DNA of 64,000 nt from Amoebophrya sp. A120 (taxonomy: Eukaryota; Protista; Dinoflagellata), in NCBI GenBank assembly GCA_905178155.1, contig CAJINV010000006.1, positions 316,398 through 380,397 on the forward strand. Direction: 5' to 3'. This document shows, piece after piece, positions 14,301 to 36,800 of this stretch; positions within the stretch are counted from its first letter, which is position 1; every line of letters starts with the position of its first letter. The position numbers were made by a program, and so were the translations under genes. The notes below the pieces were generated by a model. The model had not been told where the DNA came from. It searched no databases and was given only the letters and a program-made list of their open reading frames with translations.

Positions 14301-17300
14301 CAATCCTCTTGCATGTTGCGCATCACAAATTTAAGTTTTTTTCTAGGATAAAGGTGGATGTAGTTGTACTAGAGGTGTTCTTATCAAATGCAAAAATGTC
14401 CGGATGTCTGGAAACTTGTGTTGCTGATACTTGCATTGCAAACTTGCTGCTTGTACGGCATAACAGCATGAGAAATTTCGCGAGGCTTATTCCAGATTCA
14501 TTCGTTTTTAGCATGACAAAGTACCATATCCAGCACGCCAAAAAAACTGGGCAATGGTATTCATGCATTACAGATCTTGTTATCCTTCAAGTCCTGCATC
14601 ACAAATCCAGACCCAGACATATTTGCACTACATATTTCTTCGCCTTTGTACCTCCTGTGTCTGCTGTGGTCGCGGTCGTCGTGTTCAGCACATTCGTTTC
14701 CTTGTTCGTGGTCGAGATATGCATTGCAAAAGTAAAAATATCGCTGTACCAGAACTAGTAGAAGACATCCCATTACAAATTGACTTTAGCACTACAACCT
14801 AGTTGTATTATGCGGATCGATAGCAGAAGCGCCGGCTCTGTAATTATGCACGTGCCACCAATTCCTATGAGTTGACAATACTTTTGCACAGGATATGAGA
14901 TACGAGGTCGTCCACGAAATCCCGGAGGCTGGAGAAATTTTTGTGATGTGTTTTTTCTAAGTATACAGGTGTAGGTTTTATCAATGAAAAAAGCGATACA
15001 TCATGCCGTTCTATGCATCAGTAATTTGAAAAACAATTTAGTAAATCTACCTTCGGTAACGCTTTCATCCGCGCTGCGTAATCTTCTTTCCCTTCCACCA
15101 GTCGCCTTCGATGCCGAAATCTTTCGTCCTTCTCCAATTCTTATCAAATGCAAAAGTGTCTGGGTCTGGAACAAAGCAACTTGCCATCCTGCACCTGAAT
15201 CATGTAAAAATTTGTGTTGCGTGATTACCAAAAGCTGCCCACTTTTGAGCCAATCGAGAGGCGGTTTCTCATGCACGATTAGGCATGATAGAACTCTCAC
15301 AGAATCTGTCATGCTATTTCTTACATACCAGACCTCATGGGTGATGGAAAACCTGCATGACAAGTCTTGCATTCTTCCAGACCCAGACATTTTTGCACTT
15401 GATAATTCTTTCAGCTTTTTCTTCTTCGCTTCTATTATCGACATTGCAAAAATAGTGTCGCACCACTACTACCCGTACGTAGGTTGAACTTGAAGTAAAA
15501 GTATGACAAATTTATCCTTCCGCCAGGATGCAAATTAATCGGAATTTGTAAGTGCGGATTGACCTTTACGCAGAGATTTGTGTTGCATGACTGCAAGTTG
15601 TACTAGTACGAGTTTAATAGCACGATGCTTTTGCAATGGATACCTTCGTCTTTTTCCCCCTCGATTTTCTTCACTCTTTTCTCCACCCTGGCGATGTTCT
15701 TTCGCACGTCGATATCCCGTCCAAAAACATCCACACCCCAGAGTTGTCATGCAATTCTGCATGCCAAAAAGGTTGCTCATGCGGAGCCCTATGAGAAGCA
15801 TTTTCTATGTGTGTTTTGGACTTTGTGATGCTAAAATCAGCATGCTATGCTAGATCTGTGATGCTTCTGAATGAACTAGCTCAATGGGATCACACTACGA
15901 GGACAAACCTGTCATGCCAAACAGCCACAGCTGGTTGATTTGTCTAGCAAATTTCCCATCTTGACTCTGGTGTGGGGACGTTTTTAATCAGGATAGTCGA
16001 ATGGCCGCAAGTGCAAAACCATCTTCGTTGCCTTTTTGTCCGGAAACAATGGGGGTTTCGCGCGTTTTGGGGGCGCGCTGAGCAGCAGATCCGCCTTGGA
16101 CTTTTCTTTGACTTTTTCCTTGTTCGGCTTCAACTGCGGCTCAGGGAGTGCGTTCATAGGAAGAGATAAAGAGGAGCTTGAAGAACCACTGCTGGTGCCA
16201 TTAGTTGTAGAAGTAGCACCTCCATCTCCCGATTGTAGTAGTGGTGAAGAATTCTGTTTCGGTTTCGGACCCTCATCATCGCTTTCCGATCGCTTTTTCA
16301 AGAAGGGCAGCATGAAGGGTTTCTTGGGTTGTGGTTTGGTTGGTTTCGCGTCATCTTTTTTCACCTCCTTGGGGGATTTTTTCGACTTTGGCCGCGAAGA
16401 AGATTTTGGCGGAGAACAAAGTGTCCGCTTTTCGTCTTTTTGTTTATCGTCGTGGTCCAGTGTCGTGGAGGTCGATAAAGGTAGCGGAGACGATGCTGAT
16501 CGTGTAGTAGTCACAGAATTTGTTGTGCCGCTACTCAAGGAAAGTAATTCGTTTTCCTGGTCGGTTGTATTGCGTGCAACTACTGGTACATTCGAAGACA
16601 GTGAAAATACACTGTTGCTGTCGTCCGTGGTCGTGGTCCCAGTACTAGGGGTCGATAACGTTGCTGGTTGTGGGGCCTCCTGTGTTTCTAAAACCGGTAC
16701 TTCTGCACCACTAGCGCCATCATCCTCTTCGGGAATACTGAAGAGGTCCGTCGCCAGCGGGAAGGACATGGACAATGCGTTGGAAAATAAATTACACGAG
16801 GCATCAAAAGGAAAAATCCCCCCTCCCCATATCAAAAGCAAGTGTCTGATGCTGGATTTGCGTACACAAATCAGCTTTGTACTGCAGAGAGGCATTGCGG
16901 GCAGATCTCCAGGCTCGATAGGGGCGTATGTGTCTAGTTGCTCAGCATGGCAAAGGGCTCCCCTTTAGGCTCAACAGCATGACAAATCGCCTCCGTAATG
17001 GGGCGAAAGCTCCTGGCCTTGTCTTCTTGCAAGATGAATATGATTTGTGACCTCAAATCAGCAACACAAATTTTCGGAAAGATACCTTTTCGATATGGGG
17101 AGGGGGGATTTTTCCTCTCAATACGAGGAACTCGAGCTGCTGGATGATGAACTGGACGATGAACCGCTGCTACTGGAACTGGACGAAGAGAAAAAAGAAC
17201 TGAAGGAACTGGAGGAAGCACTACTGTTCGAAGAAGAGCTACTGGAAGAAAAAGAGCTGCTCGAAGAAGAGCTGCTCGAAGAAAAAGAAGAAGAAGAGCT

Positions 17301-20300
17301 GCTCGAAGAGGAGGAAGCTGCTGCACCACCAGATGAAGAACTGCTACTCCCGCCAGTCATGGTCTCTTCAGAATTATTTTCCTCTTTGATGTTGTTCTCC
17401 CCATTGGAAAACAACGAGGACCCGCCAAACGACGCAGCAATTTGTATGGTGTTCTCAACTGTTACATTCTCAACTGTTACATGAATTTGTGATGCAAGAA
17501 TGGCAACAGTCAAACAGGCAAGCTTCCTGCTTTCGCATCACAGATTTGGCACAGATTTAGATGCTATTTAGCCTCTCGGATATTTGTCATGCGAAGCAGC
17601 TTGATCATCTGGCGGCTTAAGGTAGTCTTGCATGACAAATTCATGTAACAGTTGAGAATGTAACGTTTGAGAACTCCATAATTTGTTCCTGCATAGCCAC
17701 GTCGCGATCAAGTTGTTTCTGTTCCTTCTTATGCATTGCAAATATGTCTGGGTACTCTGGAGAAGTGCAAGGTTTGTCATGCTAGGCCAGCACGACTCTT
17801 AAGTCTGTCACGCACGTTAATACCCAAAAACCCTATTTCTCTGTGATGCAGAAACGCAGTTTGTCATGCAGAATAGACATCACTTAGAAGCTCAGAAACT
17901 TGTCATGCTGAGCCATCATCTGTGGCCTCCACATGCTAAGTCACTCAGCATTACAAGTTTCCAGACATCCAGGGATATTTGCATTTGATACTTCTCCAAC
18001 ATGGTTAAAAACTCTTCATTATGCTGTGCAAAAGTATCGTACTCGTATAAATGCAGGTCTTGCATTACAAATTTCTTTATCAAGGCAAATCAGCATTACA
18101 AATTTTATTTCTCATGCTAAGGAAATTTGTAATGCATTTATACGAGTACGATACTTTTGCAGTTCATATTCATGCTCGTCATCCTCCGCGGGTAGAATGC
18201 CAATAATCCCATTTCCAAACCCAACCACAATATCGTTGGCTGAAGTGACCGGCGACGCGATGTTCTCGTCATCTGACAAATTATTATTTTCCTCGTCCTT
18301 GTCATTGCTTATGCTTTTCGGAGGAGGAGGTGACGGAGGAGGTGACAGGGGTCTTTTCGGGTTTTTGTTTCTCACCGCCGTCGGCGTCTTGTCGTTTTTC
18401 ATTTTCTCCTCGTCTTCCCCTCCACTGTCCGCCCGACTTTGCTCTTCCTCGCTATCCGAACCGGAAGAGGAGGTCAAATGGTACCAAGTCGGACTAACAT
18501 CTTCATCGTCACTGAAGTTACAAGTGTCTCGACGGTTCATCATCTTTTCCGGGTCAATCAATTTCCCTTTGCAAATCTTGGCCGCCGGCAGCAGCGGAAA
18601 CTTCTTCTTGTCTAGCCGAATAGTCGTCCCCGTATTGGGCGCGGGGAGCGGAATCTGGATTTCGTAGTCGGTTTTGGACACGTCGTTCGGAATCTTCTCG
18701 TTGTTTTGCAGTTCTAAAAAAAATTTTGCACCAATGCTGTCGCCCATCTCCACCCGGTACACCGGGGCGGGGCCGTCAGAATCGTCTTCGTCGGGCGTTG
18801 GGTAGCAGCGACGAGTACTCAAGTATCAAAAGTAAAAACCCACCCACCCTAGATCAAAATTGAAATCTGTGATGCTGAATTGTGGCCACAAGTCAGCTTT
18901 GTCATGCTAGAAGGGAAGTAGAGATGCGGACTGTAGTGCTGGCTAACGCAGGAACGCCTTACGCCTTCAGCATGACAGGAAGCAACTGGAAATAACGGGA
19001 AACAGCACGACAAATTGCCTCCAAACACGGGAACACCTGCCTCGCTTGGCCTTCTAGCAATATATTTGTGTACTCAAATACAGCAACACAAATTTCGTTT
19101 ATCGATATGGGGAGGGGGGATTTTTCCTCGCAGTATCAACCGCTTTGGCTTCCTTGTCTCCGTATCCCCAATCACGTCCCGGTATCCCGAAGCAATTTGC
19201 CAAAAAGAACTTTTCTCAATTTCTTTACGGACCTTTTTTCGCTTTTGCTCATCCGCAAGCTCTTGCTGGTACTCCTCATCGGTCATGCGGCCGAAGAGCT
19301 GCTCCTGGTCCTGCTCCGGGGAGTTATTGTTGTTGTTGTTCGCGGTGCTGGTGCTGCTGTCATCTCCTTTTTTGTCCGCCACCTCCTGGTTATTTCCATT
19401 GTCACCTCCAGCTGCGCTAGATGAACCTGCCACACGTTCTTGCGCGTTCTCCGCACTTCTCTTGCCCTGCTGCGCCTGCGTCCTCTCCTGCGGCTCCACA
19501 GGAACAACTGGGCGGTCGGTATTTGTTCCGTTATTTTCACCATCTCCCGCAGTGGAAGTCGCTGCTGCAGCCGCTGCTGCTTCTCTCGCTTTCTTCTCCG
19601 CTATATCAAGTGTAAAAATGTCTGGGTCTGGAAGATCAAGATTCTGACACTTGTCATGCACGTTTTGCATGAGTCATGATGTCTGTGATGCATTCCCCAG
19701 CAATACAGATTTTTTGAGGGCTTCTTGATGCGTATTCCGCATGACAAATGCCATCTCAGCGTAGCAAAAATTGCATTTCCTTTGGTACTCATGCAATACA
19801 GATTTTTTTGGAATCCAAATGCAGCATCACAAGTTGCATTCTTCCCGACCCAGACATTTTTACAGTTGATACGCTATCAATTGTGCGAACCTCCCATTCG
19901 GATGGAATCCGAAGTCATCATCGTCATATCAAATGTATTCCACAGAAAAAGACCGACAGGTCATATTTGTAATGCAAAAATAAATACACAGGAAAATCTG
20001 TCATGGGCGAGGCCATAGCATCCTGTTTAGGGCATGCAATACAGATTTTTTTGTCTATTTATTTTTGCATTACAAATATGACCTGTCGGTCTTTTTCTGG
20101 GGGATAAAATGCAAATATGTCTGGGTCTGGAAACTTGTAATGCTGAGTTGTGAAGAATAGTGACTGCTCTGTAATGCACAACCAAGCATGCGAAATTTTT
20201 GCACGGCTAAGTGCTGCGTTTTGTGAATGACAATTTGTGTTTTTGCATGACAAGCAAAAGAGGTCTCTTCTTCAAAACGCATCGCAAACTCTTCAGTCAT

Positions 20301-23300
20301 GCCAGACAAGCATGACAAACCTTGCATCCTTCCAGACCCGGACATATTTGCAATGCATACAACTGAGCGCTTCCTCTTTTCGTCTTCCCCTGGTACCTTA
20401 CCCGCTGCCGCTAATCTCGCTAGATGCTCCGCCTTTAATTGTGCGAGTCTCCCAGGCGGGGTGGGTGGACTGAGGGAACGACGATATCAAAGGTAAAAGT
20501 GTCTGGGTCTGGAAGATTGCCAGGTTTGTCATGCACATTTTGCGTGACTCCTGATCGATCTGTGATATGCATGCCCTAGCATCACAGATTTTGTGAGGGC
20601 TTCCTAATGCCTATACCGCATGACAAATGCTCTTTCCGTGTAGCAAAATTTGGACTCTCTTTGCTGCTCATGCAATACAGATTTTTCTAGAATCCAAAAT
20701 CAGCATGACAAGTTGGATTCTTCCAGACATCCAGGGATTTTTACAGTTGATAGACGACCGTCGTCGTCGTCGGTGTTGGCGTTTTTATTTCGGGGCCGCA
20801 GGGTATCCCAGGAAAAAAGTGTTACAGTTACACATTGGTTGGGGTTTCTGCATCACAAAGTTGCTCGACATGGCAAAGAAAACCTCTGATGCGCAGACTA
20901 TAAGGCAAAACACGAATGAAATGCGGTTTGCAAGCATTTTCTGCATGACAGAGCTTGTCTGTCTTGCTAGTCTCCCACCAGAGTGCGTAACTATAAACAC
21001 TTTTTTCCCACGATACAGGGCTTGCTTCGGAGCTGCGGAGGACCGACCGCGAGTTGCAGACATCGTGGACGTTGTTGCGATCGGAGAAGATAACTGGGAG
21101 CTGCAGGTGCTTCCAACATTAACACCATCGCTGCTACTCCCTGCGGTACCGGTACTAGTTGTGGCAGAAGAAGCTGCTCTCGTACTAGTAGTACAGCTAC
21201 CCCCTTGCAGGCGCTCCTCGGGGTTAGTATTCAAGTTTAGGTTTGGCGGTGTATTGCTATTGTTTTTGTCAGTGTCACCCGCGGCGCGCTTACCTCCCGA
21301 AGAAATAACGGAGGGCGAGTATTGAGAGGAAAAATCCCCCCTCCCCATATCGAAAAGGTATGTTTCCGAAAATTTGCGTTGCTGATTTGAGGTCACAAAT
21401 CACGTCTGTCTTGCAAGAAGACAGGCGCAGAGGCTTCCACACCATTATGGAAGCGATTTGGCATGCTGTTGCGCCTAGGGGGCACCAGCAGGGGGGATTT
21501 TTCCTTTTGATAGCGAGGAATAACGTGATGAAAAACTCGGATTTTTTTCACCGCTGCTACCTGCTGAGGATGCGGTCGACGGCGTAGTTGTCTCCGGTTG
21601 TTGTAAACAAATGTTGTCCGTCGAACTCGAAGTAGTGTTGTCTACTTTTCTGTTGGTATCTTTACTACCACCTGACAGAAGGGAAGAAGATGCAACAGGG
21701 GCATCAGCATTGTTATTGCGGCCTTTACCTCCCCCAGGACCAGGAGTAGCAGAAGTACTGCCCGATAAGTGATCTGGGCTTGCGTTCTTCCTTTCACCAA
21801 GTTCTTGTTGTGGGACAGCAGTAGAACGGCCAGTATTACCACCGCCCGGAGATACCGCCGCGTCAGAAGAACGACCGCCAGTATTTTTACTTGCACTTCC
21901 CCCCAGTCCGCGCGGTCCACATTTTCCCAATCCTTTCTTGCAGACGTACGGTGGCGGCCGCTCGCCGGGCCGTCGCGGTCGCGGCCGGATGGGGGGCATG
22001 GGAGGAAACACGTTGGGGAGAGGCAAAACTTCATCTGTGATCGTACTATCTCTAGCTGCTGTGCCTGGAGTTGATGTTCCCGGTGGCTCTTGCGCGACTT
22101 GCGGCGCAGAAGGGAGAGTCACCGGCTGTACAGGAACTGGTCCAGCAGGAATTTGCTGCGATGCGGCCGGAGATGAGGGCGCAACTTCTACGGGGGTAGG
22201 AACTACTGGTCCAACGGGCTGCTGCGACGCGGCAGGAAAAAGCACCGGCGCCTGCCGGTTGTTTTTCCGTTTCGGGACCACGATGTTGTTGGTCATCAAG
22301 GTGGCAGAAGTTCTTGTTGTGCTGTTGGTACTAGTAGCAGTGGCGGTGTCCGTTGCGCCGTTCTTGTTTTGCCCCGTAGCTCTACTTTCGTCTCCAGAGC
22401 GGCTGGGTATCGTCGACGTCGTGTCCAGTACCGGGGCGACGACAACGTGATTATCGTTTTCGGTAGCCGATGACGTTTTGCTGTCAACCGGCACAACAAA
22501 CGATGCCGCAGTACTATCTTCCGGCGCAGGAGCAGCTGCGTTGAATCGGGAGTAAATATCAGAGCTGGTGGTCGTGGATTTCTTTTCTTCGCTCCCTGCA
22601 CCGGTGGAAGGACCATCTCCACCGCCAGGAGCAGCGCCGCTATCTTCCTGCTGCTTCTCCGAAGCCGAAGGAGGTTCACCAAGGTCGAATAAACCGGTCG
22701 AAGAAGTAACCGCATCTCCCGCCGTACTAGGAGAAGATGAGGCAATTGCAAGAACTGCAACACTCGGCAGTTCCTCTTGTAGCTGACGTTCATTTCCGTC
22801 TACAAGTTCGGGAGGAGCGGTCAAGGGTACAAGGCTCTCATCTCCTGCTGGCGGGTTGAGTAAGCTGTAGTTACAAGTTGTAGGTTTGTCCACCTTGTCG
22901 ACGTTTTTGGTGGTTTTCTTGTCGGTCTTCACTCCATCTTGGTTGGACGAAGTAGTAGTTGTTGGCAACTCATGTCGTGGTTCCACTGACAAGGAAGTTT
23001 CATCTTCCGCCTTAATACTCCGGGGTAACGAAGATTCAGTTTTGCTTTTCTTTTCCGCTAAATCGAAATCGTGATGTTCATCCGCCTGATCGTGTACCGG
23101 TGCTGCAGCATGGGTGGCAACGCACGCGTTATTCTCCTTAAAATCCACAACCCCACCGCGTCCGTCGGAAAGGATGTTCTCTGCTGGTGTTTTTTCCTGA
23201 AAAATCCGAACTGGTTCATCTTCGTCCCCCTCCAACGGTAACAAAGTCTCCTTTTTCTCCACCATTTTTTCCACGCGGGGCTGAAACTGGGTGGGCTGGC

Positions 23301-26009
23301 AAGCTGCAATCTCGTTTTGGTCAAATGAATCCGACTTGACGACGTCCTGGACAAGAACTGGCTCGGGTTCCTTCTTTTCGTTAGAATTTTCCACTTTTTT
23401 GGCAGCGCAGGAGCTTCCACCAGTTGGAATATTACCTGCTTGTTCCAAATGTACCCGGTCCACCTCCTTGTTCTCCTTTTTCTTTTCCTCGACCTTTTTC
23501 GAACTACTTTTGACCCCCTCCAACAGTTGCCTCTCAATTTGCTGCTTCAACTCCGCCTTTGCTTTGCTTACACTTTTATCCTGTGCAAAAGTTTCGTACC
23601 CGTTTCGTATGAATGGAAATGCAAGTCTTGCATTACAAATCTTTTTCTGAAGGTAAATCCGCATTAGAAACTTTATCTCTCATGCTGAGTGAATTTGTAA
23701 TGCATTTATACGAGTAGGAGGACGATACTTTTGCAGTTCATAGCTTTCCTCGTACTCGGCTAGTGTGTAGGTTCTGGACAAGTCGATCCCGCTGGGCACG
23801 TAGGTTAACTTTGCATTTGGCTGAGCTGGTGCGCCGTTAAGTAGATTTGGATGGCGGTCTCGTTTATTTTGACTCGTTTTACTGTCGTTCAACATCTGCA
23901 CACGGTTATTTTCCTTCTGCTCTTCACTCGTCTCCGCGGAGTTGCCCTGGTCGTGCTGCGCCGCAACCGGTGCGGCCAAAGCCTGCGCTTGGCTGAGAAA
24001 CATTGAAAAGTGAAAGAAGCATATCACACCAAAAATAAACGTATAGTGGTTCTCCGATACCGATTCTATGCGTCTCGAACTCGAGCATGTTGGATTTTAT
24101 CAAGTATATCATTCGTTGCTTATGAACTACACAAGATTCTACACAAATAAACATGAAGATTTTCTTGACGATACTATGCGCAAAAAATCTCGTCGTCCAC
24201 AAGTACTACACACATCAAAACCACAGTTCTGTACCGATCCTCCCACTGTCCTGGTCCACGGCGATTCACCTTTCCCTGTTTCACTTTCTGTCGGTTCTGC
24301 TTCAAGACCCGCAAGTGCGCACTGCAATACAGCTCCTCCGGGTTGGAAACGTGCATGAAGTCCTCGTCGTCTGCTGTCAATTCTATAACCGGGGGTTTGC
24401 TGGGAGTTGTGTAATTTTCGTCTTCATCGGAGTTGATTTCTTCTTCCTTTAATATTCCGTCGTCGTGTAGGAAATTTTTGTTTCGGCGTCCCACACGACG
24501 ACCAACAACCGTGTTTTCTAAATCCAAATCCATCTTGTCGGTAGTAGTGGTAAAAGAACCTCCCACGACAGGGACAGCCTGTGAAGAAAATGAGTTGTTC
24601 AGCATTTTTCGTCCGGCGTCCTTATCCCCCCGTTCTTGTTTCATCCGTTGATCATCATTTTCATTCCGGGCTAAAAAAGCCGCTACAAAATCCTCTGCTT
24701 CGGTCGATGTTTTGTGTTGTTTTTTAACACCAGATTTCTCCTCATTGTCGTTGTGGTTGATGCCCATGCCCTGCATCGAATATGCATTGCAAATATCCAC
24801 TCTGGATGTGTATTGGAAATGAACTGCAACTTGTCATGCGAAATCTGGATCCGACGCAAATAACTCTGTGTTGCATGAATACCAAAAGTTGTGGTCCGCT
24901 TTTGAGGACCACTGGTTGAGAGGGAGTTTTTACTTCTCATGCAGGATATTGGGCATGATACAGATCTCACAGAATCTGTCATGCTAGGTCCTGCATGATT
25001 CATCCAGCCCTCGTGGCTGATGGTAATCCTGCATGACAAGTCTTGCATTCTTCTAGACGCTTCTAGGAATTATATTTGCAATGGATACCAAATTCGTCAA
25101 AAGATCGTCGATCGTCATCTCGGTAGCTGCAATTGTAGTTGAATTTTTCCGGTCAACATTTTCTAAATTCTTCTCATCTGTGCTAGTAGTTGTGTTTACA
25201 GTTGTCAAAGTGGTCATCGCTACTTCCGAATAAAAATTGCCCTTCCTCCTCCCGTTCTCATCCAGTTTTCGATTCGTGCGGTTGGTTCTTTCATCGATAT
25301 CCTCAACCATCGGTGGCCGCCGCTTCAGGGAGGTAGTTGAGAGTTGTTGTAGTTGTTGGTCCTCCTCCTGTCCTGCTTGCACCCCCGTTGTATAAAAATT
25401 ACTGTTGTAGTCGTTGTGCAAAAGCGACGCCGCGCTACTATTGCTTTGATGTGATGCCTGCCCCGGGCGGATGAAGCTTGGAATAGAAGAACTCCCTGCA
25501 TCTGTGTTCATCTTCTCGTGTTTGTCACTGGGAAGGTTGCCCTGCGCTCGTCGCAGGTCTAACAAAAACGAAACCAGAGCAGCCTCGGGAGCGAAACTGC
25601 TGGTAGTGCACTTTGTAGGTCTACTACTTCCGGGGTCATGTTTCATCTGTAACACGGCAGGAGCGGGGGATTCTTCGACAGCAGGGGGTTCCTGCTCACC
25701 GCTCGGTTGGTTCTTGGGTTGTTGTTTATTTACTAGGCTGTTTTCAACATCATCTTGGGTAGTAGTTGTTGTTTTTTTGGACGAACTTGACGTGGTCCCA
25801 CGATCATCTCCTGCATTTGCTGGCTGTGTCGTGGACGAGTCGTGTGATACAATCGGTGCTGCAGCCCGGGTGGTCGTTTTCGTTGAATTGCTCAAGGTGG
25901 ATTTGGGGTTGGCGGCTTTACTAAGGGTAATATTGTCGGTCTGATCCTCTACATCCAGCAGGCATGGCGGATTGGGTACCGCTGCCGGCTTCGCCGGAGA
26001 CTCAGGCAT
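11323..26009 (-). CDS. Large Ser/Thr/Pro-rich hypothetical protein split by about 24 introners and at least 2 GT-AG introns
   Basis: Starts MPESPAKP at 26009. Frame restored by removing element plus 5 nt at tested junctions: RYSS|PSVISS (21320), QAL|RPRN (20804), KRSV|DDDF (19927), TTS|DNLTIS (12866), KRIR|KSIDIF (11976), NAEM|EAFSD (11408) ending WTEG-TGA. Not all junctions tested, so it could be more than one gene or extend further 3'. Confidence 0.6.
11408..11669. mobile_element. Introner family A
   Basis: TAT..ATA TIR; DR CCATT. Confidence 0.9.
11976..12119. mobile_element. Introner family B
   Basis: DR TCGGA; frame restored. Confidence 0.9.
12866..13015. mobile_element. Introner family B
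   Basis: DR AGAGG; frame restored. Confidence 0.9.
13246..13737. mobile_element. Introner family D, enlarged
   Basis: TATGAAAGTGCACAAAA...TTTTGTGCACTCTCATA; no DR; about twice the usual length. Confidence 0.6.
13753..14052. mobile_element. Introner family G
   Basis: TATTACAATGAAAAATGCCCC TIR; DR GCCAC. Confidence 0.9.
14151..14350. mobile_element. Introner family J
   Basis: DR AAGGT; similar to 53025-53252. Confidence 0.85.
14382..14634. mobile_element. Introner family A
   Basis: DR GTTCT/TTTCT (4/5). Confidence 0.85.
14718..14895. mobile_element. Introner family B (diverged)
   Basis: DR CGAGA/TGAGA (4/5). Confidence 0.8.
14929..15050 (-). other. Probable canonical GT-AG intron
   Basis: Minus strand AAG|GTAGAT...TTTCTCCAG|; AT-rich; frame not tested. 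Confidence 0.6.
15142..15404. mobile_element. Introner family A
   Basis: DR ATTCT. Confidence 0.9.
15433..15642. mobile_element. Introner family B (diverged)
   Basis: DR GCTTC/CCTTC (4/5). Confidence 0.75.
15713..15995. mobile_element. Introner family F
   Basis: DR GTCGA. Confidence 0.9.
16802..17123. mobile_element. Introner family C (left end CAT)
   Basis: DR CGAGG; internal orientation opposite to 21320 and 33410 copies. Confidence 0.9.
17445..17680. mobile_element. Introner family H
   Basis: DR ATTTG. Confidence 0.9.
17730..17990. mobile_element. Introner family A
   Basis: DR CTTCT. Confidence 0.9.
18020..18168. mobile_element. Introner family B
   Basis: DR TTCAT. Confidence 0.9.
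18824..19135. mobile_element. Introner family C (diverged, right end GTA)
   Basis: DR TCAAG/TCAAC (4/5). Confidence 0.8.
19604..19871. mobile_element. Introner family A
   Basis: DR CGCTA. Confidence 0.9.
19927..20359. mobile_element. Introner family A carrying nested family K element
   Basis: TATCAAATG interrupted at 19936, resumes AAATGCAAATATGTCTGGG at 20107; outer DR poor but frame restored. Confidence 0.85.
19936..20106. mobile_element. Introner family K nested in TIR of an A element
   Basis: About 50-bp TIR TATTCCACAGAAAAAGACCGACAGGTCATATTTGTAATGCAAAAATAAATA; DR AAATG. Confidence 0.9.
20485..20752. mobile_element. Introner family A
   Basis: DR GACGA; frame restored. Confidence 0.9.
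20804..21015. mobile_element. Introner family E
   Basis: DR CAGGG; frame restored. Confidence 0.9.
21320..21512. mobile_element. Introner family C, internally deleted
   Basis: DR GCGAG; empty site with single GCGAG near 2959. Confidence 0.9.
23577..23742. mobile_element. Introner family B
   Basis: DR ACTTT/GCTTT (4/5). Confidence 0.85.
23993..24060 (-). other. Probable canonical GT-AG intron
   Basis: Minus strand GTATCG...TGTTTCTCAG with pyrimidine tract; frame not tested. Confidence 0.55.
24781..25087. mobile_element. Introner family A (diverged)
   Basis: TATGCATTGCAAATAT...ATATTTGCAATGGATA; DR 3/5. Confidence 0.8.
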
Positions 26010-26321
26010 GGTTTGGGTTTTCTGGGTTGAATTTTTCCGGTAGTTTTATTTTGTCGCAATTCTATGTTTGACTCTGATGTCTCTTTTACTTTCTACAAAT
26101 AAGGAACAAAACCCGATGAAACATGTGAAATAAAGTTTGTATTCGACCGTTACCAGTCGTGGCACGCAAGAACAGATCGACGCAACATGGGTAATTATCA
26201 TTATGCGAGCGTGCCGGCACGCTGATGATTTATATTTAATAATTTGTAGTATGTATGTTTTTTTTCATCAGGAAATAAGCCGTCCGTGATTTCTTTCACA
26301 TAGGCCCAGAAACTGCTGGAC

Positions 26322-29300
26322 TTAGAAGAGGAATCCAGGCTGCTCGCCGTGACGGTTACAAGCACTTAAGCACACCACATCAATCTCCGCAACAATGCTA
26401 CCAGGTAACCAGTTGCTCAGCGGGACTTGAGTATCAATATACGGAAAACAGCAGGCAATCTTTTTTGGCATTCGCAGGGAACACTTACAGAGGACAACTC
26501 CCAAAACAGCAGGCTCGTGACATTCACAGATACACCTTCCCAGGCGGCGCGCCATCTGAGGAGAGAAACCACGCCGGCCCGCCGCGGGCGGGTGCGAAAA
26601 CGCTGCGGCCTGCGTACGAATGCACGGCGCCGCGCTGGCTGACTTGCTTCCAAGGCCAACGGGCGGGCCACCTCGCTCACTGAGGCTGGCCAGCTCGGCA
26701 CGCCGGCAGGACACAAGCGGGCGGCCACTCATCTCCAGGGCATGGGCGTGCCACGCCCCCCCCCTGGCGGGGGGGTGGCGAGGGGCCCTCGCGGGCGGTG
26801 GTGGCGAGAATGAACCAGCGCCGCCAGCCGGCAGGCGGTCCCGGACCGCCTGACCGGACCGGGTCCGGTCAGGTCTGCCTTGCGAGCGACCCGGCATACC
26901 TCGCAACGCGGAGAGGGAGCCTCCGCGCTGCCGGCAGCGGGGCGGGGGGGGGGGCCAAACTACCCAAAGCGCCGCCCCGCCGGGGGCGCTGCACACGGTC
27001 ACGGCGCTGCCCTTGCTCGGCGTTTGCAGCGGCCCGCTCTCGTGCTTCCGAGCTGGGCAGCATGAACAAAACCCACCACACAAGCCGCACGGGTGCCGGG
27101 TCCTATGCCCGTCCCAGCGCCAGGGGAGCACGGGCGCCGAATCGCATGGCGGGCCCGCTACCACATGCCTGCGGGCAGATGCCGGCCGGCGCCTTTTCGA
27201 CGAGCCCGGCAAGGGGCGCGGCTGACGGCGCAGGGCGCGCGCAAAGGGGCCGCGAAATCCCGCGCGCGCGGGGCGGGGTACTCAGGGCGGGGCGCCGTGC
27301 GCGTGGCCCGACACTCCCACAGGAGGGCGCGGGCAAACCGCGCCCGCGCCCTACAAATAGGCGCGGGGCGCGCGGGCCCGCCGCCCAGTCTCGCGGCCTC
27401 CGCTCAACTCGATCACGCGCGCGCGCCCCTCGGCATGCCCGTCGTCGACACTGTTGCCGGGGCCGCGCGCGCATCTGGAGCGCGCTGCATCACGCGGGCC
27501 GTGCACATCTTGGGCGTGCTGCACTTGATCCCGCGCGCCGCCCCGGAGCTATTTCGGCGCCTTTCACCGGAGCTATTTCGGCGCCTTTTATTTCGGCGCC
27601 TGATTCCGCCCGCCGCATTCACTCGCGGCCCCTGTTCGAATGGCATCAAGTTACAAGGTAGCAACTTTGCCCGCTGCTGGTTCATTTCGGCAGGATTCAT
27701 CTCCGTTCAATGTATGTAGAAATCTCTGATGAACACCACGCACCTCTTCGCGTTTGGGACGAGACAAAAACGTAGAAATAAGTTCATCTGCATTTTAAAT
27801 TCTCTTCGACGACGAAACTTCAATTAATCTTCGGTGCTGGGAGCTGTGTAATTCTCCCATGTTATCCACAGCTCTATCTTTAATACGACTTTTGCGGCGG
27901 CAGAAGCACCGGTTTTTTTAGTACTTATCGACCAGCACATCAATTGCGTTTCTTTCTCTTCTTCTTCTTCTTCTTCTTTCTCTTCTTCCAATCGGTGAAT
28001 TCAACAAAGTGCAAGTCTTGCAGGGTTCCTATTTGCGAGCAGCGACTACAAGAAGTCTACGACGAATTATACAATGTTTATGTTGAATGATGTCGTCCAC
28101 CTACGCTACTTATGTAAAATCAGAATCGGAAAGAAGAAAGCTGACTAAAAACGGATGGGATTCATACTTAATTTCATTTCTGATAGCCGGCACTGATCTT
28201 TGGAAAAAAAAGCTCCGCTACTTCTAAGCAGTGTCGTGAGAAAAATACAATCACTCAGTGTCTCAAGAGAGTACACGACCACGACAGCGATCACGTCGAC
28301 GACCTCTACAACATCAATAAGGAAGATGAACCAACGCCACTCTATACATCGCCACCAACCTTCCTGCTCAGCATCATCATTTTTATCTCCGCCGACAAAT
28401 TTTGATGCCTTAACCACGACCCGTGCATCGGCATCCCCAAGAACTCCCCGCCGAGGCCGACCCACTAATATCTGCATCAAGACCATTCGCAGCTCGGCAT
28501 TCTTATTTGTATATTGTGCAACATCTTCTCCTCAAAAACCTCCCGGTTGTTTTTTGCGTCGCCAACAACCGTGTTTGCTGTTTCCACTTCGCTTTTGTTT
28601 CATTGTGGTTCGTCGTGGTCGGTGTAGTTTGTTTATTGGGTTTTTCCGCACAGCCTTTCTAATAGAAAAATCGCAAACCTTGGGTGGAAGGTTCTTCCCT
28701 TGGGATCGTCAACATCCAATTCCGCCCCTAGCAGCTGGTTGTTGAAATTCAACATCTACGGAAATTTTCATCTCGATGTAGTTGTAGGAAAGTGGTTAGT
28801 GGTACTGGTTAGAGAGGGTTTGCAAGTTGCTGTTCATCGTAGGTGTTGAGAAATTCTAAATTTTTTGTTGTTTCCCCGTCCTGGGGCTGGGTAGTTGTAG
28901 TGGATTTCCATCCTCATCTACCTCCGAAACCGTGTGGCCACTTTCATCCGTATCTACCAACAACTCCTCCACCGCTGTTATTTAGTTGATCTCCGCTGTC
29001 ATTTTCATCCTGGGTAGTTGATTTTTTTTGCACCCGCTCGTCGCCCCAAGATCTCCTGCATCTGCTGGTCGTTTAGTTGACGAATCGCGTAATACAATCG
29101 GTGCTGCGGCCCGGGTCGTAAGCTCTATTATTTGCATTTTGGTTTCAAGCACGCGCAATTGAAGTAAGGGCAATTAAGGTTGTCTTTAACCGTTAATGCT
29201 GTTACTGTTATACACAAAAATAGATCGGATCGAAGATAATTACGCGAGTGACAGCCGCGGCTGCGCGCTGGTCTATTGCTTTGCGCTGTTTCTTTTTTCT

Positions 29301-31600
29301 CTGGAATATAATTGGATACACCGTGCGCGACTTGTGTCACAGCTGCTATGTTGAGAAGAGGAATCCAAGCGCCCCAGCTCATCATCGTCTTTCTTAATGA
29401 AAGGCATATAGAATGACAGAACGCAGTCACATCTAGCTCCGCAACAACGCTAGCTACCGGCCGTGGATATTCATTACGGACAACAGCTGCCGGCAAATTT
29501 TTTTGGCAGGGAACACTTACAGAGGACAAGTCGCCAAACATGCTGGCGACATCGATTGATACATCTTTCAAGGCGGCGCGCCGGCCATTAGAGGAGAGAT
29601 GCCACGCCGTCCCGCCCCGGGCGGGCGGGCGCGAAAAAGCTGCGACCTCCGTATGCTTGCGCGGCGGGCGCCGCACTTCCACGGCCAGCCGGCGGGCAGA
29701 CTGCAGCAGGGCGCAGACCACAGGCGGCCGGGGTGTTCGGTGGGCAAGGCTGGCCACCCTGGCAAGGCGGGCCAGCTCGGACGGCGGGCAAGGCCGGCGG
29801 CAGGCCCAGACAGCGCAGGGCACGGGCGAACGGCCCTCGCTAATTGATTGCCAGGGGCGCACCAAGCAAGGTAGGCGGCCGGCCCCCGCGGACATCGGCG
29901 GGCGGTGCTATTCCGCGCAGGCAATCGCCCGGGCAGCTACTGGCGCCGCGCCGCCCGCTTCTGTGGCCGCCCCGAAGGGCGGCCAGGCTGTCAATATCTG
30001 TCGCTGGCGCCCTCTCCTTCCTCCGGAACGCCCTGCCGGCGTTCCAGCAACGTTCCAACAACGGGCAGTCCCAGTTCCGAGTCAAACGGCCGGCCCGCTT
30101 TCATTTTCTTGCGGGGCGGCCAGATGCCGGCCGGCACCAACCTTGTCGAACCCCCCGGCAAGGGGCGCGGCGATGTCGCCGCGCGGCGCTTGGCAAGCGG
30201 GCGCCGCGCCTAGAAGGCCCGCCCAGGACTGTCGGGGCAGGCGGCGCGCAAAGGGGCCGCGAAAGCCCGCGCGCGCGGGGCGGGGTACTCCGGGCGGGGC
30301 GCCGGGGGCGTGGCCCGATATTCCTGCAGGAGGGTGCGGGCAAACCGCGCCCGCGCCCTACAAATAGGCGCGGGGCGCGCGGGCCCGAAGAGGGGGCGAC
30401 ATCAAGTTACAAGGCAGCAACATTGCCCGCTGCTGGTTCTCTTCGGCCGGACTTGTCTCCGTTCAATCTATGTCGTATTCTCCGAACACCACGCTCCTCT
30501 TCGCGTTTGGGACGAGACAAAAACGTAGCAACAAATTATCGTCGTTCTAATTTCTCTTCGACGACGACGACGAAACCTCCTCAATCTTTGATTATTCGGT
30601 TCTGTAGCGGTCGAATTCTCCCAAAACTCATATCACTAATACCACTTTTGCGCCAGCAGATGCACCTGTTTAGTACTTATCGACCAGGAGCACATCAATC
30701 GCGTTTCTTTTTCTTTTTGCAATCGCTATATAAATGCAACAAAGTTTCTATTTGCGGACAGTGCCAACAAGTCTGCGAATTTACAATGTTTTTATTGTTG
30801 TTCACCTATGCAGCTACGTATGTAAAATCAGAAGCGGAATAAAGAAGAAAGCTCACTACTTAACGGAGGGGGTCCCGTTTTGATAGCCGGCACTGATCTT
30901 TGGAAAAAAAAAGCCGCGCTGTTATCAAGTAGTGTCGTCAGAAAAATAGAATCACTCAGTGTGTTAAGAGAGTACAGCACCACACCAGCAACCACGTCGA
31001 CCTCTACAACATTAATAGAGAACCAACGTTACCCTTATACATCATCACCAACTACCCCTCACACCATCATCATGATCTGCGCCGATCTCAACCACGGCTC
31101 GCGCATCTCCACGACCCTCGTGCGCGTCTTCTAAAAAAGGTGCCAAAGCACAGCTCCCTTTCTTGTGCGCCCCCTTTGCATGCTTAACCTCCGATTCCGG
31201 CCAGGTACTAGTAGCTGCGCCCGTAGTTGGTAGTTGAAGCGATGTGCTGTTCGTGGTAGTAGCTGAGAAAAAAAATGTGTCTCGCATCAACCTCCGTTTT
31301 TAGTTGAAACTAAACACCTTTGTTTTTTTTCATCTCGTTGTAGTTGTAGGAGAGTGGTTACTGGAATTGGTAGTGGTTGAAAAGAGGGTTCATTGCGAAG
31401 ACGGCGCAACTTGCTGTTCATCATAGTAGTTGGGGTATTCGGTAAAAATCTTGTTATTTCCTCGTCCTGAATAGTTGTAGTGGATTTCCATCCTCAGCTG
31501 CCTCCGAAACCGTGTGGTCATTTTCATCTTCCGTATCTACCAACAACTCCTCCGGTGTTATTTCACACGCGTCTTTCATCTTGGGTAGTTGATCTCCGCT
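26322..31600. repeat. Diverged tandem duplication, about 26322-29010 vs 29352-31600, each with a GC-rich island and decayed coding fragments
   Basis: Collinear anchors: AGAAGAGGAATCCA (26324/29354), CGCGCCCTACAAATAGGCGCG (~27345/~30352), GGGACGAGACAAAAACGTAG (~27756/~30509), TGATAGCCGGCACTGATCTTTGG (28181/30881), TAGTTGTAGTGGATTTCCATCCTCA (28892/31472). Confidence 0.85.
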
Positions 31601-33409
31601 GTCATTTTCAGCTCGTTCGACCTCCACCTGCGTCACGGTTAACAAATCCTTCTCGTCTTCCAGAATTCGAATTCCTCTACTCCCAGGCTGTTCTTCCGGA
31701 AACAAAACCATCTCCTCTGCGAATTTTGAAAAAAGTCCAAACAAGCCGTTCTGTTCATTGCTGTTGTTTTATCCTCCGTGGGACAAACCTCATTTATCAG
31801 CAAAGCACCAGCACCGTCACGTTGTCTGGTTTTGGATTGTTGGTAGTTGTCTTTGCTGACAAACCAATCGTCAAGGTTGGATTGTTGGTTGTTTTTGTTC
31901 CCGTGGCCAAGACCATGGTTTTCCAAAGATGATTTTCCTCCTCCTCACGTTGGGACGTTGTTGCACAAAACCGCCGTTTTACTCAACTGCTGCAGTCCGC
32001 AGCTTGCCAATGCTCCTGCTGCAGTCCTCAACCCCTAACCTCCCCAGAGAAAACCCGACGCCGTGCCGTTGGCAAGTAAGTACCTAAATTTATTAAAAAA
32101 AATCAGAGCAGAGGACACGCGAGTACTAGCACTATAAACTTTTTCATGTGAGGAACCAGATCCATCCGCCGCTGTTGCGATAGCTATACCACGATGATGA
32201 TCTTGATCGCATGTAAACGGAAACTGCAATCAAACTTCACGATAGATCTTGAAAAAAGCGCGTACGAAAATGACAATTTTTGCATCTTTGCGTGAAGGCT
32301 GCGAGAGGTGGACTAAAGAGGACTAAACGCCGCTTTTTTCCATGGATTCCATTGATAAGCCGCTCGTGTTTGGAAAAACATATCGCACTGCCAATTTATC
32401 GTTTCTTCTAGGATCGGAAGCGCTGTTTCATTGTAGTATTACAGCGGTTTTCGTTTTTAATCGCTGCGAATTCTGCCTGGTAGTTATATCTTTCTTCCGA
32501 ATGGTTTCAATGCGTTTTCTTCTGGTTTGAACACAGCATCGCTTTTTTCCAAATAAAATCAGTAGCACCACGACGCCCACGCGGGACGAAATAGGAAGAT
32601 GGTAGCACTTTTCGTTGCGATGAGAAGGGTAAACGGTTTTCGTACATTTCATTCAATCAACGTTGTACTTGTACAGGGCTTATTCCACCTTAGCACGCAT
32701 AATACAAAAAGAAAATTCGGATTCATTGATCGCTCTAGCAAAGAGTCCTTGGGCAGCTGCAGTGGTCTGCTTTGGTTGTAGTTTATTTTGTACAGTTTTT
32801 ACATTCGTGGTCACAGATAGGCTCGAGGTGTGCTGTCTTTTTTTGTTTTTACCGGGCGATGTTTGAAACGGTGCATTTATTCTGTGCTAAATGGCCCTCG
32901 GCACTACGCACGACATCATGATCAATAGGCTCATGCCATGATGTTGATATCTGTGCTGTTTGATAAAAGGTATATTCAGTGTTTGCGAAACAAATAGTGA
33001 ACTCTTCGCGGTGTTTTATCTGGGAGATAGTAATCCATAGTTTTGCAGAAATAGGAAAGCCTACCGCTTTGCTTTGCAACGGTTCGAGATCACTTCCACC
33101 TCTCCGTGGTACATAAAAATCTTTAGGTTTTGCCGCCTGTTCGGCCTGCTAAAAACTCCTTCGTCTAAATTACGAAACTCTGGTTTTGCTGATGTTTAAA
33201 GTTAAACTCGAAATGGTGAAAATGCGATAAAATTCTTTTGTCTAAAATACGAAACTTCTGCTTGTGCTTTTCTGATGGCACTGTCACCAGTCAATCTGAT
33301 ATCATCAACGTTTGCTATTGTATTGTCTTGTTTTGCAGCAGCGCGTCTAAAATTACGAAATTCTGGTTGTAAAAAAGGGCGATACAAGTTTTGAGCTTGT
33401 TCCTTCTTC

Positions 33410-33735
33410 TATCAAAAGGAAAAATCCCCCTTCCCCATATCGAAAGGGTATGTTTCCGAAAATTTGTGTTGCTGATTTGAGGTCACAAATCGCATTTGTC
33501 TTGCAAGAAGACAAGGGCAGAAGCTTCCGCCCCATTATGGAAGCGATTTGTCATGCTGTTCTTGGGCCTAAAGGTGAGCCGTTTGCCGTGCTGCACAGCT
33601 AGACCCATACGCCCCTACCTAGCCTGGGGGTCTGGCCGCCGTGCCTTTCTGCAATACCAATCTGATTTGTGTACGCAAATTCAGCATCACAGATTTCCTT
33701 TTTGATATGGGGAGGGGGGATTTTTCCTTTCGATA
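33410..33735. mobile_element. Introner family C downstream of CFAP57 stop (probable 3' UTR)
   Basis: DR TCTTC; absent from paralogous flank near 52475. Confidence 0.9.
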
Positions 33736-33890
33736 TCTTCCGGAGGGAAGCGGAAGTGGAGCACAAACTCTGAAAAAAAGTCAGTACAAAGATGTTGATG
33801 TGTTTCTTTTGTTAGCCCGATTGTTAATACACTGTATTGTAATTTCATAACATTTTACTTGTTAGTTGCCTGTGCCTCCTCCGACCGCTA

Positions 33891-36800
33891 TTATTTGTTT
33901 TGCATGCTGATCATGAGCGGGAACCCATCAGCGGACGCGAATTCCTGCAATTGTTCCCTGGACTTCGCTATGGATTGCAAAAATGTCTGGGTCCTCTGGA
34001 AGATTGCAACTTGTCATGCTAAATCGGAATAATGCAAAAATCTGTGTTGCATGAGTGCCAAAAGCTGTCCACTTTCGACCAAATTGGGACGGAGTTTGAT
34101 TTCTCATGCAGGACAGGCATGGCAGAGACCTCGTCGCTGACTCTGTCATGCGAGGTCCCGCATTCCACACCTCATGGCTGGTCATGGAAAACCCGCATGA
34201 TAAGTTTACACTCTTCCAGACCCAGATGACATATTTGCATTTGATATTCGCATTGGGGAGCTGTTTGTTCTTGCTGTGTCCGATCGGGGGCATTTTTCCG
34301 TTGCTACCGCGGGTCCCATATGAACTGCAAAAGTATCGCACTCGTATAAATGCATTACAAATTTCCTCAGCATGACAGATAAAATTTGTAATGCTGATTT
34401 ACCTCAAGAGAAAGATTTCTAATGCATGATTGCAATACGAATACGATACTTTTGCACACGATATCCCAGGGGTGCGCGGGCCGGCGTTGATGCCGCCCCC
34501 GAGATTATTCGACGGCGTCATCTGGTTGGCGGCGCTGGCTTATCAAATGCAAAAATGTCTGGGTCTGGAAGAATGCAGACTTGCCATGCATGTTTTGTAT
34601 GATGATTGATGCCTCTAATGCATGATCTAGCAACACAGATTTTTCGAGGGCTTCCTAATGCCTATTCCGCATGAGAAATCTCTCCGCGTACCACAAACTG
34701 GAGTCCTGCTGCTGGTCATGCAATGCAGATTTTTTTGGAATCCAAAGACAGCATTACAAGTTGCAATCTTCCAGACCCAGACATTTTTGCAATCCATATG
34801 GCTCCGACGTTCCCGGCCTGCTCGTTCTTTAAAGACTTCAGCTCCATCTCCATTTGCTTTATCTGATAGTTTTTTTTGGCGTAGATTCTCATTTTGTCAT
34901 CCGCATCAACTACACATTGTTCCCATGGGATCTAATCTGTCATGATGCATGAAACAGAATCCACCCGGATCCATAAAACACCGTATAAAAATTTCAGAAC
35001 CGCTCCAAGAACATCATCAGTAAAAAAAGTACCTTGTCCGCGTAGTCCTTTTGACTTCTCCGCAATGCGTTAATTTCCTCAATCAGCATGTATCCACTGC
35101 AAAAGCATCGCACTCGTATAAATGCCAGTCTTGCATTACAAGTCTTGTTCCCAAGGCAAATCAGCATGACAAATTCCATTTCTCATGCTCAGCAAATTTG
35201 TAATGCAATTCATACTAGTACGTTGCTTTTGCAGTTCATAGCATGGAATTTTCCCCGATTTTCCGCAGGTTATTCACCTTTCCCATCTCCGTTTGCTGTT
35301 CGGACTTGGAGGAGAGTTTTTTCAAACTTCTGGACAGCTGCCTCTTCTGCCGGTCCATCTCCTCGATCCTATGTAAAAACGTCCCCATCCCGTAGTCAAG
35401 ATGGGGAATCGGCTAGACAAATCCACAAGCTTTGGCTGTTTTGCATGACAAATTTGGACTCGTAGCGTAGTGCTGCTTGAGCTAGCTCAGCAGCATCACA
35501 GATCTAGTATACCATGCTGATTGGAGCATGACAAATTCCAAAACACGACTAGACAACGCTTCTCATGGGGCTCGGCATGAGAAACATTTTCATCATGCAG
35601 ATTTGCATTACAACTCTGGGTTGGGGACGATTTTAAATACGATATCCTCGATTCCAGCCGCATCCGCCCCGCCGGAACTCGAAGCCGCGGAGTGTGACGT
35701 TCCACTGGTTCCTGGCGGTTTCTTATGCAGAGCAAAAGTATCGCAGTTGTAGTAATTGCAATCATGTATTACAGATGCAAATCTCTTCCCTCCCTCAGGG
35801 AAATCTGCATTACAAATTTCATTTCTCATGCTGAGAAAATCTGTCATGCGATGTATACTATAGTACGATGCTTTTGCATTTCATATTTCTTGGAACTCTG
35901 ACTGGTTCCCGAGCTTCCTTTGTTTCCTCCGCGACCACCTCCCGATGCGGTGCCCGGAACCGGATTGTCACTGGCATAGGTGCCGCTGTAGTCCTGGTAC
36001 AGCTGCCTCAAGTTTTGCAAACCGATCTTGGCTTCATCATTCCCCGCGAAGGTTTTCTCGTGCATCATGCCGTAGAGCTCCCGTTATCAACTGCAAATAT
36101 GTCTGGGTCTGGAAACTTGTGATGCTGGGTAGCGTTTCATGATGAGGCTACAGGTGCTGGCTTAGATCAGATCAGATCAGATAGTTTTTTGTAAATACTC
36201 ATAAAGAGTAAGTTTACAAATGCTCGCTCGAAAGCGGCGGTAGGGACGTTGTGTTTCTGAGCTTCTAGGTGTTGCCTATTCTGCGTGACAAACTGCGTTT
36301 CTGCATCACAGAAAAATGGAGCTTTTGGGGAACGTGCATGACAGATTTAAGAGTCATGTCAGACAAGCATGACAAACATGCATTCTTCCAGACCCACACA
36401 TTTTTGCACTTGATACCCGTTGAAATTTGTTGATGTACTTCTCTAAATCCCTCTTTTCCTCCTCCGTGTGCTTTATTGTGTCCTGCTGGTGCTTATGAAC
36501 TGCAAAAATCTCTGGATGTCTGGAAACTTGTGATGCAAGAAAGGAAATAGTGAGCACACTGTCATGCGCCCCCTAGCATGACAAGTTTTTCCGTAGTTCA
36601 GAGATGCGTGCCGCGCCTGAGAAACTGCGTTTTTGCATGACAGACAAGAGGAGCTCTTTGCGGCCACGCAATACAGAGTTCAGAGTTATTCCAGACTAGC
36701 ATGACAAGTCTCGCAATCTCCCAGACCCAGACATTTTTGCAGTACATAGTGCTTGATCGTGAGTTTCAAATTTTCCAGCGACTTCTGCTGGTTCTGCTCT

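Follow-up and report, generated by a model that had tools for sequence, protein, structure and literature searches.

A spaced end motif with a non-pairing outer segment in short inverted-repeat elements of Amoebophrya sp. A120 genes

We analysed a stretch of 64,000 nucleotides (nt) from the dinoflagellate Amoebophrya sp. A120 (contig CAJINV010000006.1, positions 316,398 to 380,397; hereafter 'the window', in whose positions all coordinates are given). It is eukaryotic, gene-rich DNA, and about 31% of its bases belong to short elements. Of these, 78 paired elements of roughly 110 to 335 base pairs (bp) that begin with TAT and end with ATA were catalogued, first by scanning for TAT...ATA pairs flanked by a repeat and then by using a profile to find missed ends; 19927-20359 and 13246-13737, whose duplications do not match, 53665-53785, which is likely a chimera, and several unpaired ends were kept outside the 78. 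A perfect 5-bp direct repeat flanks 62 of the 78 elements, and none has a 6-bp duplication, the length being 5 bp throughout. Empty sites for nine elements were found in duplicated stretches of the window, and because each of them carries a single copy of the 5-mer, the flanking repeat is a target duplication.

A preliminary description of the window had proposed that the ends carry a bipartite signal: TAT (positions 1 to 3 from the tip), five variable letters that often fail to pair between the two ends of one element (N5, positions 4 to 8), and a conserved G followed by an A-run, the whole being read as a spaced motif by a protein rather than purely as an RNA stem. The three end pairs that it quoted (17730-17990, 33969-34246 and 34319-34463) are present in the sequence as written. 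TAT-N5-GCAAA matches the window 77 times, both strands included, while 30 first-order Markov simulations gave a mean of 3.2 matches and a maximum of 7. Per-position counts were made on 75 of the 78 elements, those at 15433, 46915 and 57275 being excluded for their shifted ends. Identity between left and right ends was 0.97 at positions 1 to 3, 0.62 at positions 4 to 8 and 0.89 at positions 9 to 15; at least two mismatches fell within positions 4 to 8 in 43 elements, and none in 11. The motif is less strict than that description had it: TAT is found at 148 of 156 ends and G9 at 118 of 150, G9 is missing from all 10 ends of one group, TAT-N7-AAA is found at 120 of 156 ends, and the full TAT-N5-G-N-AAA at only 105.

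A larger sample was obtained by a metagenome scan with N5 as wildcards. It yielded 165 loci with 231 distinct elements, which were pooled with the window elements to give 306 (612 ends). These loci share no long stretch of more than 75% identity with the window, and many have one end chosen by the search pattern. Eleven families of at least four members, defined here independently of the letters A to K of the preliminary description, hold 267 of the 306 elements. The variability claimed for N5 applies mainly to positions 4, 5 and 7, to which non-pairing is mostly confined, but not to position 8, which is T in 471 of 612 ends and matched between the two ends in 87%. Moreover, N5 is not random: it is drawn from a small set of words (for example CAAAT, GCATT, CCTGT and GGATT) that are typical of families (identity 0.62, versus 0.39 across families). 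In the family of about 150 bp, CCTGT occurs at one end in 24 of 41 copies, while the other end has GCATT or GAACT and CCTGT is not among its common words; this bias argues that the N5 mismatch was inherited from active copies. The idea that N5 is a relic of the element's own target site was discarded, identity being at chance level.

Covariation between the two ends, the check proposed in the preliminary description, was measured on the 267 family members by shuffling ends within families (3000 permutations). At positions 4 to 7, end-to-end identity was 0.55, compared to 0.56 expected, so that no compensatory covariation exists there within families. At position 10, identity was 0.80 and at position 14 it was 0.81, compared to 0.68 expected for both, and none of the permutations reached either value. 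A finer division into families gave the same outcome. In the main group of 162 elements, letters at position 4 pair at chance (CC 79 versus 81.6 expected, CG 71 versus 65.3), while mismatches number 38 versus 73 expected at position 10 and 31 versus 72 at position 14. Matching between the ends is thus maintained in the inner repeat but not in the outer spacer.

Although unpaired, the spacer is constrained in length and letters. It measures exactly 5 nt in all 69 TAT-bearing cores of the window (6 cores lack TAT) and in 187 of 190 TAT-bearing cores at locus ends not picked by the search pattern (15 lack TAT). The first gap between the two ends falls within positions 1 to 13 in 10 of 267 elements, and within positions 14 to 40 in 132. 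Of the 612 ends, 585 have C or G at position 4, and only 4 have T at position 5. Among 50 independent pairs of close copies, divergence was 0.233 at positions 4 to 7, 0.28 at position 10 and 0.235 at positions 14 and 15, as against 0.083 in the interior, 0.088 at positions 16 to 24 and 0.017 at positions 1 to 3 and 11 to 13. Whole-word switches of N5 were in slight excess (9 of 100 versus 4.2 expected, P = 0.024); simultaneous switches of both ends at position 10 or 14 were not significant in these pairs (P = 0.12 and 0.09). The limit to C or G at position 4, the near-absence of T at position 5, the fast divergence at positions 4 to 7 and the excess of word switches together suggest that copies exchange end variants, though only within a permitted set of letters.

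The elements show no polarity relative to the host gene. Host strand was assigned for 192 of the 231 metagenome elements by a 4-mer model that called 15 of 16 held-out chunks of the window correctly, provided that frame length did not contradict it. Families occur in both orientations (37:49, 26:18 and 16:21), which argues against reverse splicing into mRNA. At the tip, the logos of 5' and 3' ends are alike, and neither GT nor AG is favoured in the duplications. On the transcript strand, G.U-type and A.C-type mismatches number 76 versus 70 at positions 4 to 8, and 152 versus 164 at positions 9 to 24. Fold energies are likewise similar for sense and antisense (-92.8 and -92.6 kcal/mol): either RNA strand is predicted to fold as a long stem from about position 8, loose at positions 4 to 7, with an in-register pairing probability of about 0.9 at positions 9 to 13, 0.6 at 4 to 7 and 0.7 to 0.8 at 1 to 3. 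Predicted pairing of the terminal TAT is only 0.56 in elements with at least three mismatches.

A second motif lies further inside. GCA-NN-ACA, mostly GCATKACA or GCATCACA, has 1102 copies in the 267 elements, both strands included, or about four per element; it is common to all larger families, and its outermost copy lies 42 to 56 nt from each element end. A stricter form has 234 occurrences in the approximately 20 kilobases (kb) of elements; the remaining 44 kb of the window hold 37, mostly in element fragments. The core of the site diverges by only 0.022 in close pairs, compared to 0.083 for the interior. Two roles were considered for it and rejected. As a branch point it lacks polarity, since conservation of the candidate site does not exceed that of its 5' mirror copy (12.15 versus 12.57 bits, P = 0.28); as the source of the terminal motif it fits the word GCATT only, not the commonest word CAAAT, and a loose resemblance remains. 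Degenerate tandem copies of an internal GCATGACA-type site were seen at 37900-38740, beside an unpaired left end at 38255; RNA depth is zero over 37969-38635, within this stretch.

The elements are removed from RNA, and several joints show that removal to be exact. Among the joints listed for the X9 reads, at least three skip precisely one element plus 5 nt: 33404>33736 (739 reads), 36488>36749 (518 reads) and 38846>39186 (617 reads). The first two were also found in X3 contigs; none of the three was found in X5, whose contigs run through elements. At 33969-34246, which has three N5 mismatches, 141 X9 reads pass directly from 33968 to the sequence that follows the second duplicate, and at 36857-37076 an exact join is visible in 90 loose-end reads. 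The third of the joints above removes 38852-39185, in which N5 is perfectly paired. Since removal is exact despite N5 mismatches, pairing of N5 is not needed for it. Five more exact joints, at 11 to 19 kb, each come from a single X3 contig of low depth; two further X3 joints, 12867>13028 and 21304>21513, are inexact or cannot be interpreted, and several more connect repeats. The depth implied for non-element bases was 497 to 594 in three of five bins, close to the 568 to 643 measured on exons; the depths of 273 and 293 in the two remaining bins are probably due to further unannotated introns. Judging from depth, 34319-34463 (four N5 mismatches) and 35365-35644 (one GAT end) are likely removed too. 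The gene at 11-25 kb is not covered by X9 and X11 raw reads, and X10 holds only stray element reads there, which leaves 17730-17990 with no joint and carries no information about expression. In-silico removal of elements, each with 5 nt, restores a long frame in this gene (Table 1) and opens further frames in other genes of the window.

Because of the flanking duplication, the cut itself cannot normally be placed, and two elements with mismatched duplications were used. At 40219-40446, 103 reads retain the upstream copy through its third base, which puts the 5' cut 0 to 2 nt before TAT; at 14382-14634, one contig retains the fifth base of the downstream copy, which puts the cut 1 nt or more before TAT. 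On this thin evidence, and provided that the register is fixed, the cuts would lie 1 to 2 nt before TAT and 3 to 4 nt after ATA.

With moderate confidence, we favour a reading in which the ends resemble those of miniature inverted-repeat transposable elements (MITEs) and are recognised as a signal of fixed geometry by a putative cut-and-paste transposase, with an RNA fold-back likely positioning removal; the elements fit the A120 type of introner, a class of introns described below. The 5-bp duplication, TA..TA tips, insertion in either orientation, nesting and the arrays of one common site argue for a DDE cut-and-paste enzyme acting on DNA; the elements themselves are too short to encode a transposase. 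A putative DDE (integrase-fold) enzyme would insert them through a 5-bp staggered cut, and a protein would read the TAT tip, the 5-nt spacer, the G-Y-AAA core and the internal GCA-NN-ACA sites on DNA, each end separately. DDE transposases usually bind at an inner site and recognise the tip for cleavage. In RNA, the inner repeats would fold back into a stem that has two-fold symmetry and an internal loop over positions 4 to 7; this stem would position excision, and the excision machinery would cut in the register given above. An enzyme measuring from such a symmetric structure would remove elements exactly in both orientations without donor or acceptor signals, as has been proposed for the euglenid introns compared below. 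Recombination or conversion would reshuffle end variants among copies. The agreement of the two ends at positions 10 and 14 fits either selection on the stem or homogenisation between ends. Protein read-out, as proposed in the preliminary description, is plausible for the outer end, where covariation at positions 4 to 7 and a G.U excess are absent, position 4 is C or G and the spacer is fixed, but does not account for the covarying inner repeat; that description also did not recognise the elements as introns, of a class already in print.

Several observations weigh against this reading. TAT is not absolute, since 8 of 156 ends differ and one GAT end is apparently spliced. Covariation at positions 10 and 14 is unexpected if the ends are bound independently, and points to pairing or to end-to-end homogenisation. 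A symmetric RNA internal loop of fixed length would equally fix the spacer without pairing, and a few master copies together with reshuffling could explain the restricted letters at positions 4 and 5. The comparison of G.U and A.C mismatches has little power if master copies must work in both orientations, and it deviates nominally, in opposite directions, at two of the 24 positions tested (14 versus 36 at position 15, 18 versus 4 at position 21). The cut register is drawn from one set of loose ends and one contig of low depth. A Pfam search of 26 frames of the window found nothing transposase-like, its only matches being weak WD40 ones in two host exons, neither an autonomous copy nor an excision enzyme was found in the window, and no transposase is reported for A120 in PMC7789003 (here and below, statements about cited papers refer to those parts of their text that were available to us). 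The end pattern had no match in viral contigs or prokaryotic genomes, and no Rfam family was found in the window.

A more specific mechanism can be put forward tentatively. A polarity-free, non-spliceosomal enzyme might dock on the symmetric fold-back (the inner stem and the GCA-NN-ACA helices), measure past the tolerated loop, and cut at -1/-2 of TAT and 3 to 4 nt after ATA; the same signal might let one mobiliser move thousands of unrelated families, with end variants swapped faster than interiors mutate.

Alternatively, the motif could be a signal of RNA structure only, made up of a terminal helix of 3 bp, a symmetric loop whose size is fixed, and a long stem. An excision enzyme would then read it as bulge-helix-bulge introns are read, and it would be kept by selection for splicing rather than for transposition. 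The elements are indeed real introns, predicted pairing follows this profile, and positions 10 and 14 covary, elements mismatched at both numbering 8 versus about 37 expected from end frequencies. However, neither a G.U over A.C excess nor an energy difference between sense and antisense was seen, the loop-free element 38852-39185 is also spliced, the supposed terminal helix is weakly predicted where mismatches are many, and the limit to C or G at position 4 has no rationale in pairing; we regard this explanation as rather unlikely. Quite improbable, in our view, is that these are ordinary MITE inverted repeats with nothing reading a bipartite signal, their mismatches being ancestral accidents followed by decay near the tip. 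Imperfect terminal inverted repeats (TIRs) are common among DNA transposons, and the copies are old and diverse with family-typical N5 words; decay does not explain why positions 4 to 7 change 2.8 times faster than the interior while positions 1 to 3 and 11 to 13 change 5 times slower, why changes stay within C and G at position 4 and never involve T at position 5, or why spacer length is fixed. Finally, a relaxed U2 spliceosome using hidden polar signals, such as the internal GCA-U-N-AC as a branch point, is highly improbable: the outermost internal site does include U-N-A-C and lies 42 to 56 nt from the end, and PMC7789003 reports that U2, U4, U6 and most proteins of the spliceosome are present, but the candidate branch site is matched by its 5' mirror copy, tip logos are alike and the duplications are unbiased.

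The removal of tens of thousands of introns without GT-AG ends and without detected U1 small nuclear RNA (snRNA), and the identity of their mobiliser, were left open in PMC7789003, and our literature search found no paper settling either for A120 introners. The per-position map narrows the question to a few features that mutations can probe, namely spacer length, the letter at position 4, pairing at positions 10 and 14, orientation and the internal site. The last of these, like the end motif, could also serve as bait for the missing protein.

Table 1. Features of the window, with element strand given as '.' throughout
Feature	Coordinates	Strand	Remarks
Element, 253 bp, mismatched duplication	14382..14634	.	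One X3 contig, joint 14377>14636, depth 3.4; informs cut register
Host reading frame, 1810 amino acids (aa), low-complexity protein	15021..24096	-	After in-silico removal of 14 catalogued elements and the outer nested element, each with 5 nt
Element, 261 bp, ~260-bp group	17730..17990	.	N5 GCATT/CAAAT; duplication CTTCT; removal keeps 1810-aa frame
Element, 149 bp, ~150-bp family	18020..18168	.	N5 GCTGT/GAACT; duplication TTCAT
Element, 312 bp, unlike ends, one TAC	18824..19135	.	Duplication TCAAG/TCAAC; joint 18818>19136 in one X3 contig
Element, 268 bp, GT at positions 9-10 of both ends	19604..19871	.	Duplication CGCTA
Outer nested element, ~260-bp group	19927..20359	.	Left end interrupted after position 9 by 19936-20106; duplication not matching; excluded from statistics
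Element, 171 bp, inside end motif of outer element 19927-20359	19936..20106	.	Duplication AAATG
Element, 268 bp	20485..20752	.	Duplication GACGA
Element, 212 bp, GA at positions 9-10, then A-run	20804..21015	.	Duplication CAGGG
Element, 193 bp	21320..21512	.	Duplication GCGAG; empty site, single GCGAG, in paralogous stretch at 2949
Element, 166 bp, ~150-bp family	23577..23742	.	N5 CCTGT/GAACT; duplication ACTTT/GCTTT
Ordinary GT-AG intron	23993..24234	-	X3 contig joint 23992>24235; fixes transcript strand
Element, 307 bp	24781..25087	.	Duplication with 2 mismatches
Expressed host gene stretch, coiled-coil-like product	33300..41900	-	Elements missing from RNA reads
Element, 326 bp, GG at positions 9-10	33410..33735	.	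Exact RNA joint 33404>33736; empty site at 52465
Element, 278 bp	33969..34246	.	N5 GGATT/CAAAT, 3 mismatches; exact RNA removal
Element, 145 bp	34319..34463	.	N5 GAACT/CGTGT, 4 mismatches; removal likely, from read depth
Element, 258 bp	34541..34798	.	N5 CAAAT/GGATT; duplication TGGCT; read depth
Element, 150 bp	35091..35240	.	Orientation opposite to 34319-34463, same gene
Element, 280 bp, one end GAT for TAT	35365..35644	.	Removal likely, from depth and frame
Element, 162 bp	35724..35885	.	N5 GCAGA/GAAAT
Element, 331 bp	36085..36415	.	Duplication CCCGT
Element, 255 bp	36494..36748	.	Exact RNA joint 36488>36749
Element, 228 bp, mismatched duplication	40219..40446	.	103 X9 reads, loose end at 40447; informs cut register

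The distribution of elements has a strong gene bias: the median gap between them is about 120 bp in gene bodies, and no catalogued element lies in 3236-11407, 25088-33409 and 54095-57274 (8.2, 8.3 and 3.2 kb), which are largely intergenic. Introners are generally enriched in genes (PMC9860276). Besides the nested pair in Table 1, a second case was seen at 60557-60818, within the subterminal part of 60514-60842, an element of the ~150-bp family. The outer element 19927-20359 appears to be removed, as judged from the open frame alone; if both members of these pairs are removed, the inner one would likely leave the RNA first. Two elements, 18824-19135 and 13246-13737, have ends from different groups or a duplication that does not match, and are likely recombinants between elements; even so, one X3 contig shows exact removal of 18824-19135.

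Duplicated stretches supplied further observations. The low-complexity frames at 1070-4578 and 20785-23679 are paralogous, with blocks 82 to 83% identical, and have reciprocal empty sites for 2984-3235 and 21320-21512. Fragments of the gene at 33.7-45.6 kb form a mosaic at 52316-54500; this mosaic is free of that gene's elements and bears three of its own, at sites that are empty in the gene, and looks like a copy derived from complementary DNA, or purged of elements, that was later re-invaded. Upstream of the coiled-coil stretch at 33-41 kb, WD40-repeat frames with weak Pfam WD40 matches lie on the minus strand at 42000-52200, and the two together are reminiscent of a CFAP57/WDR65-like protein. 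At 41443, 196 X9 reads leave the window sequence and depth is zero beyond 41970, which may reflect a further exon upstream, a paralogous copy or a join in the assembly. A different repeat system occupies 7570-10717, where GACTTTTCTCCTT arrays in inverted orientation, separated by about 3 kb, enclose 21-bp and 40-bp tandem arrays; it is possibly a long non-coding transposon with TAT-like ends, and its frames had no Pfam match. Finally, 26400-31600 is a diverged tandem duplication with a unit of about 3 kb and GC-rich blocks, 72 to 92% identical in parts.

Compared with known systems, the elements differ from U2 spliceosomal introns in having neither GT-AG ends nor a polar branch point, and they share with non-autonomous TIR DNA transposons of the MITE kind their terminal inverted repeats, a duplication at insertion and occurrence in either orientation. 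With RAG/Transib signals they share a conserved tip, a variable spacer of fixed length, an A-rich inner element and a 5-bp duplication on transposition; they differ in having a TAT tip and a 5-nt spacer in place of the CAC terminus and the 12/23-bp spacers, and in lacking an asymmetric pairing of signals. The likeness to recombination signals is an analogy, which fits DDE transposon ends in general, and our literature search found no citable paper on bipartite TIRs. IS3EU/GingerRoot transposons have TA..TA (TAY..RTA) termini, an integrase-fold DDE enzyme and duplications of 4 to 6 bp, usually 6 (PMC10045372, PMC12730594). The window elements have the same TA..TA termini but not the 6-bp duplication, and the available text of both papers does not describe IS3EU/GingerRoot as introns; a kinship, suggested by sequence features, is a lead only. 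The non-conventional introns of euglenids also have a TIR stem joining their ends, junction repeats resembling target site duplications (TSDs), a likely MITE origin and an excision mechanism that is still open; they differ by a CAG/CTG pair at +4..6/-8..-6 and a pyrimidine/purine bias at the junction, where the window elements have TAT/ATA and no junction bias (PMC11282704).

The closest system is that of the Amoebophrya introner elements, non-canonical introns with inverted repeats of 8 to 20 nt and direct repeats of 3 to 5 nt (PMC7789003, Farhat et al. 2021); such introns are limited to part of the genus (PMC12005148). In A120, whose genes, like those of the window, lie in one-strand clusters, 29,850 copies with a mean length of about 240 nt and without an internal transposase are reported, their motif being TAT, seven less-conserved nucleotides and at least three A, and no U1 snRNA was detected (PMC7789003). 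The element class and its end motif are therefore already published, and the finding itself is not new. The available text of PMC7789003 does not mention the non-pairing of positions 4 to 7, the agreement of the ends at positions 10 and 14, the spacer of fixed length, the shared internal site, the strict 5-bp duplication with empty sites or the lack of polarity, part of which its figures may show. Most A120 introner families have been placed under 'TIR DNA, unknown superfamily'; lengths among the rows examined include 149, about 256 to 261, 305 and about 320 bp, and automated TSD calls range from 2 to 5 bp. One A120 family, number 38, has an integrase-like open reading frame between its TIRs (PMC12130899, Gozashti et al. 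2025). The window elements, which are non-coding, resemble these families in length, as compared by description, and they share with the introners of PMC7789003 the motif, the direct repeats, removal from RNA and organisation in repeated families, a likeness of properties rather than of compared family sequences.

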